A stretch of DNA of 64,000 nt. It comes from Escherichia coli. Lineage in GTDB: Bacteria > Pseudomonadota > Gammaproteobacteria > Enterobacterales > Enterobacteriaceae. Shown piece after piece: positions 44,906-45,619 of this stretch. A program made the position numbers and the translations under genes. Below the pieces are notes generated by a model, which was given only the letters and a program-made list of their open reading frames with translations, was not told the origin of the DNA and ran no database searches. The stretch's first letter is position 1. Each line of letters begins with the position of its first letter. The stretch lies in the NCBI RefSeq assembly GCF_003790525.1, contig NZ_CP033635.1; one strand, written 5' to 3'.

Positions 44906-45619
44906 TCAGTGTTCCAGCGCGATAGCGCAAACATGTTCAAGCTTAGAGAGTGAATGGTATAGTTCTGGTAATGTCATTTTTTTTCTAATCACGACCTTAA
45001 GGTTAACTTCTATTCTTCCCTTTTTAACATCGCGAATAGTGAACGCTTCAATAATATTTTTTTGTTGATTAATACACTCTATCAGGGCTTGTAGCCCTGA
45101 TCTTTCGTCAAGAGTAACATGAACTTTTACTTTACCCGGAAATTGATTCTTAGCTTGCAAAAAGAGCACAAAATAGCTGAGTTTTATTGCAATCATGAAC
45201 AAAGCAGTGGTAACCAAAGCATGCATATAAAACCCAGCACCACATGTAATTCCCACCCCAGCCGAAGCCCAAACGATAGCTGCAGTTGTTAGTCCAGATA
45301 TAGCATCGTCATGGCGATGAAGGATAACACCTGCGCCGAGAAAACCTACACCGCTGATAATCTGTGCTGCCAGTCGCATCGGATCGCTACGTATATTCAT
45401 CGAGATTTCAGCGTAATATTCTGCAGACTGAATCGATACAATTGTCAGAACACAACTGGCGACTGAAATAATGACGCACGTTTTAAATCCAACAGGCTTC
45501 CCTTTCGATTCTCTTTCAAGGCCAATAATGCCACCAAGGATAAACGCGACGCAAATTTTGCCCAGTGTAATAAAGAGAGATTCTTCTTCACTGAATAATA
45601 AGAAGGATAACGTATTCAT
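44906..45619 (-). CDS. MgtC/SapB-family membrane protein
   Basis: 237 aa ORF; N-terminal TM region with GGIIGLERE motif and C-terminal soluble domain. Confidence 0.75.
   Translation of the reverse strand: MNTLSFLLFSEEESLFITLGKICVAFILGGIIGLERESKGKPVGFKTCVIISVASCVLTIVSIQSAEYYAEISMNIRSDPMRLAAQIISGVGFLGAGVILHRHDDAISGLTTAAIVWASAGVGITCGAGFYMHALVTTALFMIAIKLSYFVLFLQAKNQFPGKVKVHVTLDERSGLQALIECINQQKNIIEAFTIRDVKKGRIEVNLKVVIRKKMTLPELYHSLSKLEHVCAIALEH

Follow-up and report, generated by a model that had tools for sequence, protein, structure and literature searches.

The occurrence of a gene of the MgtC family among insertion sequence (IS) remnants in Escherichia coli raises the question of whether it represents a virulence or magnesium-adaptation factor acquired on its own, a copy of the ordinary yhiD gene, or part of something else. 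The original prediction for this stretch of DNA (64,000 nucleotides of contig NZ_CP033635.1; hereafter the window) considered it an isolated MgtC-family gene. The family assignment was confirmed. An intact open reading frame of 237 codons, with its boundaries exactly at 44906..45619 on the minus strand, encodes a protein (WP_001094740.1) that is named 'MgtC/SapB family protein' in RefSeq. The Pfam domain MgtC (PF02308) was found at residues 22-147 (E = 1.2e-35; 122.9 bits versus a cut-off of 31.4), above the gathering threshold and thus placing the protein in the MgtC/SapB/YhiD superfamily. ACT_4 was weakly matched at residues 164-231, and a Shine-Dalgarno sequence (GGAGG; 45624-45628, minus strand) lies 4 nt ahead of the ATG start codon. 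A medium-confidence AlphaFold model based on an alignment of 20 clade sequences (mean pLDDT 72) predicted five transmembrane (TM) helices (residues 13-38, 45-72, 80-100, 109-125, and 131-157), followed by a beta-alpha-beta-beta-alpha-beta ACT-like domain (residues 162-236; pLDDT 82-86), so that the modelled protein has the two-domain build of the superfamily, namely about five TM helices and then a soluble ACT-like C-domain. Structure matches for the latter domain included 2lqj and 7qa5, and its fold is that of the C-domains of the MgtC proteins of Mycobacterium tuberculosis and Pseudomonas aeruginosa. A structural search returned no solved relative of the TM domain, and a PDB sequence search with the protein and with a clade profile yielded noise-level matches only (RibU, a de novo design, and a Rel ACT region; E ~0.5). 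The gene is hence predicted to encode an inner-membrane protein with a cytoplasmic ACT-like domain.

Within the superfamily, neither of the two established lineages accommodated the protein. The NCBIfam equivalog for Salmonella-type MgtC (PRK15385) scored 81.6 bits versus a cut-off of 255, with an alignment restricted to residues 15-147, and the YhiD equivalog (PRK09977) scored 107.2 bits versus a cut-off of 214. The domain PF21770 (MgtC_SapB_C), absent from the protein even at E-values up to 10, was present in the true MgtC proteins P0129, P0135, and P0157, and YhiD does not have it either. The virulence MgtC subgroup is defined by a conserved soluble C-terminal part (PMC4469704). Overall identity amounted to 24-27% with YhiD and to 24-27% with true MgtC, the latter represented by database proteins (P0129, P0135, P0157, and others) from Klebsiella, Citrobacter amalonaticus, Providencia, Proteus, Yersinia, and Photorhabdus; a Salmonella MgtC sequence served as search bait only. 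With YhiD of E. coli K-12, identity reached 37% over 142 N-terminal residues, corresponding to the membrane domain, and the C-domains could not be aligned. The alignment with MgtC and YhiD that had been proposed as a check thus supported membership of the family, but not of either equivalog group. A neighbour-joining tree (no bootstrap) placed the protein in a third clade, apart from MgtC sensu stricto and YhiD, and did not cluster it with the MgtC proteins of Salmonella, Yersinia, Klebsiella, or Photorhabdus (24-26% identity). In this unbootstrapped tree, the members of the third clade, 224-240 amino acids long, came from Enterobacterales, Orbaceae, Pasteurellaceae, and Bacillaceae. For the purpose of this analysis, an 'operon-terminal' 237-aa MgtC/SapB clade was defined by an identity of at least 45% over the full length, C-domain included, and by the invariant motifs ERE..KPVG..T and NIR.DPMRLAAQ.IS, all of which apply to the E. 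coli protein; Bacillaceae proteins with 41-45% identity fall within the same broad clade. An alignment of 20 clade members (A1) contained 53 invariant columns, all of them kept in the E. coli protein, and the most conserved motifs of the clade sit in the membrane domain. Sequence comparison therefore places the protein on a branch of its own within the family, as yet uncharacterised and distinct from both YhiD and true MgtC.

The comparison with the known family members makes this position more concrete. MgtC sensu stricto (Salmonella STM3764, Yersinia pestis, M. tuberculosis Rv1811, and P. aeruginosa PA4635; PRK15385; PF02308 plus PF21770) shares with the E. coli protein a five-helix membrane domain bearing the same GFxGAG...GLxTAA...W motifs and an ACT-type C-terminal fold, and both genes have been transferred horizontally. 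Residues N92 and C99 of Salmonella MgtC are functionally important, whereas the E. coli protein has T111 and A118 at the aligned positions. It further differs from MgtC sensu stricto by a 10-residue insertion between TM2 and TM3, by a C-domain that is not recognisable as PF21770, and by its low identity and separate clade. The gene differs as well, as it lacks both mgtB and a Mg2+-sensing leader and follows a LacI-controlled catabolic operon. YhiD (b3508; PRK09977), the MgtC/SapB protein of the acid-fitness island, resembles the protein in having a threonine at the position equivalent to N92 and a longer TM2-TM3 loop, but it counts 215 instead of 237 amino acids and is similar in the membrane domain only. 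In addition, yhiD is a core chromosomal gene beside hdeAB, whereas the MgtC-like gene is accessory and partly plasmid-borne. The genomes of C. amalonaticus, Proteus, and Providencia encode a true MgtC together with a third-clade member, and this coexistence in single genomes argues for distinct roles of the two.

The genetic context of the gene in the window is that of an operon end. It is preceded, on the same minus strand, by a gene for a transporter of the metabolite:H+ symporter (MHS) family of the major facilitator superfamily (MFS; 47813..49207; TIGR00883 subfamily, 390 bits versus a cut-off of 443), a LacI-family repressor gene (46677..47708; closest to RbsR, CytR, and PurR), and a gene for an IU-type nucleoside hydrolase (45683..46666; PF01156, E = 1e-69; RihA/RihC-like, below both equivalog cut-offs). 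In this order of MFS, LacI, hydrolase, and MgtC-like genes, the first junction measures 104 bp, the second is an overlap, and the third spans 63 bp. The module as a whole (44904..49364, minus strand) aligns with a chromosomal module of C. amalonaticus at 89% nucleotide identity. Upstream of the MFS gene, two 14-bp palindromes TCTAC-N4-GTAGA occur (49265-49278 and 49306-49319), which are the only two matches in the window, versus 0.04 expected, and which are retained in Citrobacter, Enterobacter, Raoultella, and Mixta; the module repressor, a LacI-family protein, probably uses them as operators. A scan for promoters and terminators gave no match in the 63-bp spacer between the hydrolase gene and the MgtC-like gene, nor did it find a clear terminator 3' of the latter. 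Across genera, conservation within this spacer was confined to the Shine-Dalgarno and start codon region. The short junctions on one strand, the last spacer free of promoter and terminator matches, and the conservation of the Shine-Dalgarno region alone within it argue for an operon, so that the MgtC-like gene would be the last cistron of a nucleoside uptake and hydrolysis operon, its co-transcription being suggested by geometry and conservation. It is thus not isolated, as had been supposed, but stands at the end of a co-oriented transporter-hydrolase operon with a LacI-type regulator, no more than about 65 bp from the preceding gene.

An upstream leader or riboswitch-like region, which had been suggested as something to look for, was not recovered: a Rfam scan of positions 42000-51000 at permissive E-values detected no Mg2+ riboswitch or mgt leader, its sole matches being a piece resembling Ysr202, below the threshold, and an ALIL match at a distance from the MgtC-like gene. 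The 63-bp upstream spacer folded no better than shuffled sequences (z = 0.70), and the same was true for the folding energy of the 150 nt downstream of the gene (z about 0.7). The expected lack of an mgtB-type neighbour did hold, as no mgtB/mgtA P-type ATPase gene was seen within 20 kb on either side in the matching annotation of E. coli SMS-3-5. The operon rather resembles the rih ribonucleoside hydrolase loci and the ugpBAECQ phosphodiester scavenging operons, which likewise combine an importer and a cytoplasmic hydrolase under a substrate-responsive regulator. However, the hydrolases and transporters of the operons with an MgtC-like gene fall below the equivalog cut-offs, and we are not aware of an MgtC-family gene in any characterised rih or ugp locus.

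The same association was found in other species. A genome scan, with one genome per species, gave at least 600 matches, the best 80 loci of which were examined; synteny was assessed by tblastn over these 80 loci and the loci found earlier. The arrangement of the window (MFS-LacI-hydrolase-MgtC-like; arrangement B) occurred with identical spacing at eight species loci among these best 80, spread over four to five genera, and additionally in two other loci (L015 and L016) and on an E. coli IncF plasmid, again with identical spacing. It is chromosomal in C. amalonaticus, other Citrobacter, Enterobacter sp. JUb54, Raoultella planticola, Raoultella ornithinolytica, and Mixta, in one case between cueR and copA. 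The C. amalonaticus module proteins are 98-99% (LacI), 95-96% (MFS), 90-92% (hydrolase), and 89% (MgtC-like) identical to those of the window. In arrangement A, seen at about 25 species loci among the best 80, the MgtC-like gene ends a different operon, after genes for a PhnP-like hydrolase of the MBL fold and a Nuc_H_symport MFS transporter (PF03825, E = 1e-77), with gaps of 8-31 bp to the MgtC-like gene. Its regulator, a fusion of a LacI helix-turn-helix and a solute-binding protein, is encoded nearby and divergently. This arrangement is found in the Klebsiella oxytoca group, Serratia, Proteus, Providencia, Erwinia psidii, Zophobihabitans, Orbaceae, and Pasteurellaceae, with flanks that are unrelated from genus to genus, and accounts for the second copies in Aggregatibacter, Haemophilus parainfluenzae, and Testudinibacter. 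Arrangement C, at a single locus in Buttiauxella, consists of a Ugp-like ABC importer with UgpB-like and UgpC-like components and a 2H-family phosphodiesterase, followed by the MgtC-like gene. Hence, three non-homologous versions of a transporter plus a hydrolase each end in an MgtC-like gene in Enterobacterales. All 28 Enterobacterales loci with at least 50% identity among the best 80 (L017-L043 and L091) displayed one of the three arrangements, two of them being partly resolved (L024, cut by a contig end, and L042, with an MFS match alone). None of the three was present at about 46 of the best 80 loci, mainly first copies of Pasteurellaceae and copies of Bacillaceae (41-51% identity). The operon association therefore characterises a subclade centred on Enterobacterales, along with some second copies, rather than the clade in its entirety. 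Clade orthologues of 236-240 aa in Citrobacter, the K. oxytoca group, Raoultella, Serratia, Proteus, Providencia, Erwinia, and Pasteurellaceae are 45-89% identical to the E. coli protein and are likewise encoded by a terminal cistron after a transporter and a hydrolase gene. The E. coli gene differs from them in being a chimera of arrangements B and A and in residing on IS-bounded mobile DNA instead of a stable chromosomal site such as cueR-copA.

The chimeric nature of the E. coli allele follows from the distribution of informative sites. The 5' segment of the gene together with its ribosome-binding region (45380..45634, minus strand) carries 64 B-type and 3 A-type sites, whereas the 3' segment together with 117 bp past the stop codon (44789..45368, minus strand) carries 55 A-type and 11 B-type sites. 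The crossover thus lies between 45380 and 45368, at codons ~80-84, within the invariant SDPMRLAAQ motif, and kept the reading frame and every clade-invariant residue. Similarly, the nucleotide homology with the C. amalonaticus module ends at the stop codon of the MgtC-like gene (44904), and that with a metagenomic locus of arrangement A (L013) runs from 45560 to 44789, i.e. 117 bp beyond the stop. These patterns indicate that the E. coli gene is an in-frame homologous-recombination joint of two paralogous modules. As E. coli carries the chimera throughout, A and B types would be functionally compatible. The dgoRKADT region of the same metagenomic locus is 95.8% identical to an extra dgo operon of the island (52963-57999), because of which one donor lineage seems to have supplied both this operon and the 3' part of the MgtC-like gene. 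The module itself was probably acquired by E. coli from a Citrobacter-like donor.

The DNA around the module bears the marks of repeated IS activity. The window is collinear with E. coli SMS-3-5 and represents a mosaic, IS-riddled island beside cobUST and a tRNA-Asn cluster, with pks remnants in the region. The IS50-like remnant that had been noticed next to the gene was confirmed as an IS50/Tn5-type element of the IS4 family (43376..44760, plus strand) with a pseudogenised transposase (Tn5/IS50-type DNA-binding domain PF14706). It abuts the 3' end of the module, lies inserted within an IS256/Mutator-family pseudogene, and ends in an exact terminal repeat CTGTCTCTTGATCAG at 44746-44760, which we take to be the IS50 inside end. 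On IncF plasmids, the module is accompanied by the final ~250 bp of this element. The description of the gene as lying between this remnant and a nucleoside-hydrolase operon was thus right as to the neighbours, but the gene belongs to the operon, and the IS remnants bracket the entire four-gene module, not the MgtC-like gene alone.

Among 5426 complete E. coli genomes, 242 (~4.5%) carry the MgtC-like gene, in 198 chromosomal and 49 plasmid copies, and 242 of 244 E. coli records show 99% identity or more. Matches on Shigella plasmids were best explained by 64 bp of IS50-like sequence in the query, since they were gone without the IS part. In comparison with the orthologues, dN/dS ratios were 0.03-0.16 for both domains, and the gene is thus under strong purifying selection; together with the near-identity of the E. 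coli records, this excludes a chance open reading frame. Loss occurs as well. At least seven IncF plasmids (H73-H79) have kept the MFS, LacI, and hydrolase genes, with the MgtC-like gene deleted and the deletion ending at 45630. The gene is thus dispensable for persistence of the module. In a few other plasmid records (H26, H33, and H45), the gene table has no entry for the gene although the sequence is about 99% identical, which points to pseudogenes.

Taken as a whole, the data slightly favour the reading that the gene encodes a third-clade MgtC-like membrane protein that closes a mobile, repressor-controlled nucleoside operon and acts as a ligand-sensing accessory protein or regulator. ACT domains typically bind small ligands. 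This property and the behaviour of true MgtC (PMC13371005) are the grounds for proposing such a function, as true MgtC homologues have been reported to curb phosphate (Pi) uptake and ATP synthesis and to be context-dependent regulators. The biochemical function of the MgtC family is still 'not completely understood', a regulator role being favoured (PMC13371005, preprint). Transcription would most likely start ahead of the MFS gene, from a promoter bearing the two TCTAC-N4-GTAGA operators, so that the MgtC-like protein would be made when a ribonucleoside-like substrate is present, not at low Mg2+. It could then sense a small molecule and act through contacts with other membrane proteins, its partner being either the cognate transporter or, as for true MgtC, the machinery of Pi/ATP homeostasis, and it may thereby tune uptake or the energy and phosphate balance while ribosyl or phosphodiester nutrients are catabolised. 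As to its history, the module may have come from a Citrobacter-like donor, after which IS elements would have spread it among chromosomal islands and IncF plasmids; a crossover of this hydrolase-type module with the paralogous module that encodes a PhnP-like phosphodiesterase and a nucleoside-permease-like MFS transporter would have given rise to the E. coli allele.

Other explanations have to be weighed against this. The protein might itself be a small transporter or channel, gated by its ACT domain and serving nucleobase or aglycone export or ion movement linked to the pathway. Its five conserved TM helices, the location of the most conserved motifs in the membrane domain, and the use of 'putative Mg2+ transporter-C' among the annotation names of the family are in line with such a role; also, the company of an importer and a hydrolase in the Enterobacterales subclade would suit a product exporter, and no structural relative of the TM domain speaks against transport. 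Yet, five helices per chain are few for a transporter, the rest of the module persists on some plasmids without the gene, and a regulator is favoured for the family (PMC13371005), which makes transport an unlikely, albeit reasonable, alternative. We know of no MgtC-family member for which transport activity has been demonstrated. Alternatively, the gene could be a hitch-hiker without a present role in E. coli and heading for loss. The heavily IS-scarred island in which the module is embedded, the deletions and suggested pseudogenes on plasmids, and the fact that the gene is a recombination joint would all fit a decaying passenger, but the gene is intact and nearly invariant in E. coli, has retained a strong Shine-Dalgarno sequence, and came through the crossover with its frame and all clade-invariant residues in place; moreover, the dN/dS ratios across genera reflect long-term selection. 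A mere passenger is accordingly quite doubtful.

The reading of the original prediction, namely a stand-alone virulence or magnesium-adaptation MgtC acquired without mgtB, may draw on the Pfam MgtC domain and the ACT-like C-domain with the fold of the M. tuberculosis and P. aeruginosa proteins, on the horizontally acquired island by the tRNA-Asn cluster with pks remnants in the region, and on the context-dependent action of some MgtC homologues (PMC13371005). However, the protein scores far below the MgtC equivalog cut-off, lacks the subgroup-specific PF21770 (subgroup definition in PMC4469704), shows only 24-27% identity to true MgtC in a clade of its own, and has T111/A118 instead of N92/C99. 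In addition, true MgtC coexists with clade members in single genomes, neither a Mg2+ riboswitch nor an mgtCBR-type leader was found, the upstream spacer is unstructured, and the operon possesses a LacI-type repressor and conserved operator-like palindromes. This framing of the gene is thus very improbable. The identification with ordinary yhiD, which would have refuted the original prediction and for which little more can be said than that both are MgtC/SapB-family proteins of E. coli, can be rejected practically outright: yhiD is a separate core gene on the chromosome, present in 5419 of 5426 complete E. coli genomes and flanked in K-12 by hdeB, hdeA, and dctR of the acid-fitness island, the identity is low, and the PRK09977 cut-off was failed. 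A yhiD mutant displays neither a low-Mg2+ phenotype nor an ATP phenotype (PMC13371005).

Starting from the favoured accessory or regulatory function, a wider and rather speculative idea, to which we attach little confidence, is that the clade constitutes a dedicated ligand-gated partner of ribosyl and phosphodiester scavenging, recruited as the final cistron by three non-homologous cassettes, i.e. an NHS-type MFS transporter with a PhnP-like MBL hydrolase, an MHS-type MFS transporter with an IU-nucleoside hydrolase, and a Ugp-like ABC importer with a 2H phosphodiesterase. The ancestral task of MgtC would then have been to couple the influx of ribose and phosphate to Pi/ATP homeostasis, and virulence MgtC would be a later, Mg2+-wired specialisation. 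Under this idea, the ACT half might be interchangeable between cassettes, given the A/B crossover in the E. coli allele.

A literature search returned nothing on the MgtC-like gene or the nucleoside module, and neither the repeated recruitment of the clade as a terminal cistron nor the chimeric allele was found in the literature searched. The gene is thus an annotated yet uncharacterised member of a known family. For this family, the present analysis ties a clade to an inducible catabolic operon in which the inducer is probably a small molecule and a cognate transporter and a hydrolase are encoded alongside. This offers a simpler genetic setting than the multi-input mgtCBR operon of Salmonella for studying what the membrane domain contacts and which ligand the ACT domain binds. 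In E. coli genomics, the gene does not qualify as an mgtC virulence marker, tempting as this mis-annotation may be. Instead, it is part of a small metabolic module that probably originated in Citrobacter, moves among chromosomal islands and IncF plasmids, and is carried by ~4.5% of the complete E. coli genomes.

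The MgtC-like gene (44789-45634 including flanks) is an in-frame chimera of two paralogous modules. Its 5' part (approximately 240 bp) derives from the nucleoside-hydrolase-type module, whereas the 3' part (approximately 470 bp), together with 117 bp downstream, derives from the paralogous module encoding a PhnP-like hydrolase and an NHS-type MFS transporter, with the crossover located between 45380 and 45368. In addition, the MgtC-like gene was absent from at least seven IncF plasmids, among which NZ_CP086619.1, NZ_CP087378.1, and CP088377.1, that had kept the MFS transporter, LacI-family repressor, and nucleoside hydrolase genes (approximately 99.3% identity). 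All these plasmids shared one deletion endpoint, at approximately 45630, about 11 bp upstream of the start codon of the MgtC-like gene.

Upstream of the MFS transporter gene, two copies of the palindrome TCTAC-N4-GTAGA were found (49265-49278 and 49306-49319), spaced 41 bp from start to start and kept across four genera. These palindromes are probable operators for the LacI-family repressor of the module. Further upstream, a match on the minus strand to the Yersinia sRNA Ysr202 in Rfam (49624-49714; E = 2.6e-5) scored 29.8 bits, below the gathering score of 315. The matched segment overlaps CCTCCGGCATAGCCGGAGG, a strong hairpin upstream of the module that resembles a terminator in both directions, and the match probably represents that hairpin only.

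Members of the MgtC family occurred in other layouts as well. In Buttiauxella warmboldiae (locus L043 from the genome scan, 1933-7660), the genes for a Ugp-like ABC importer, which includes components resembling UgpB and UgpC, come first; next is the gene for a 2H-family phosphodiesterase, which takes the place that UgpQ has in ugp loci, and last that for a member of the MgtC-like clade. This is a third, non-homologous layout of importer, hydrolase, and MgtC-like protein, represented by a single locus. Pseudalkalibacillus hwajinpoensis (Bacillaceae; locus L050 from the same scan, 7004-8516) contained a tandem pair of MgtC-family genes on one strand.

The surrounding island (approximately 16000-64000) is a patchwork, according to the annotation of the collinear SMS-3-5 sequence (NC_010498.1, 1101445-1151000), and adjoins cobUST and three tRNA-Asn genes (8206, 10030, and 12439). 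It harbours pks-island remnants (fragments of clbP and a thioesterase gene), pseudogenes (ibrB-like, TonB-receptor, and IS), and second copies of aspartate/C4-dicarboxylate genes (two aspA, several dcuA-like, ansB, dcuC, dcuR, and pepT). A fused ORF (43091-43400), in which residues 16-82 belong to the C-terminal portion of an IS256/Mutator-family transposase and residues 103-160 to a Tn5-type N-terminal DNA-binding domain, marks the insertion point of the IS50-like element within the IS256-like element. Furthermore, the island carries an extra galactonate operon (dgoRKADT; 52963-57999), which was 95.8% identical to the dgo region flanking the MgtC-like cluster of the PhnP-like/NHS type on a metagenomic contig (L013), with its order relative to the MgtC-like gene rearranged between both. 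This identity and rearrangement suggest that the dgo and MgtC-like pieces came from one common donor, followed by IS-mediated reshuffling.
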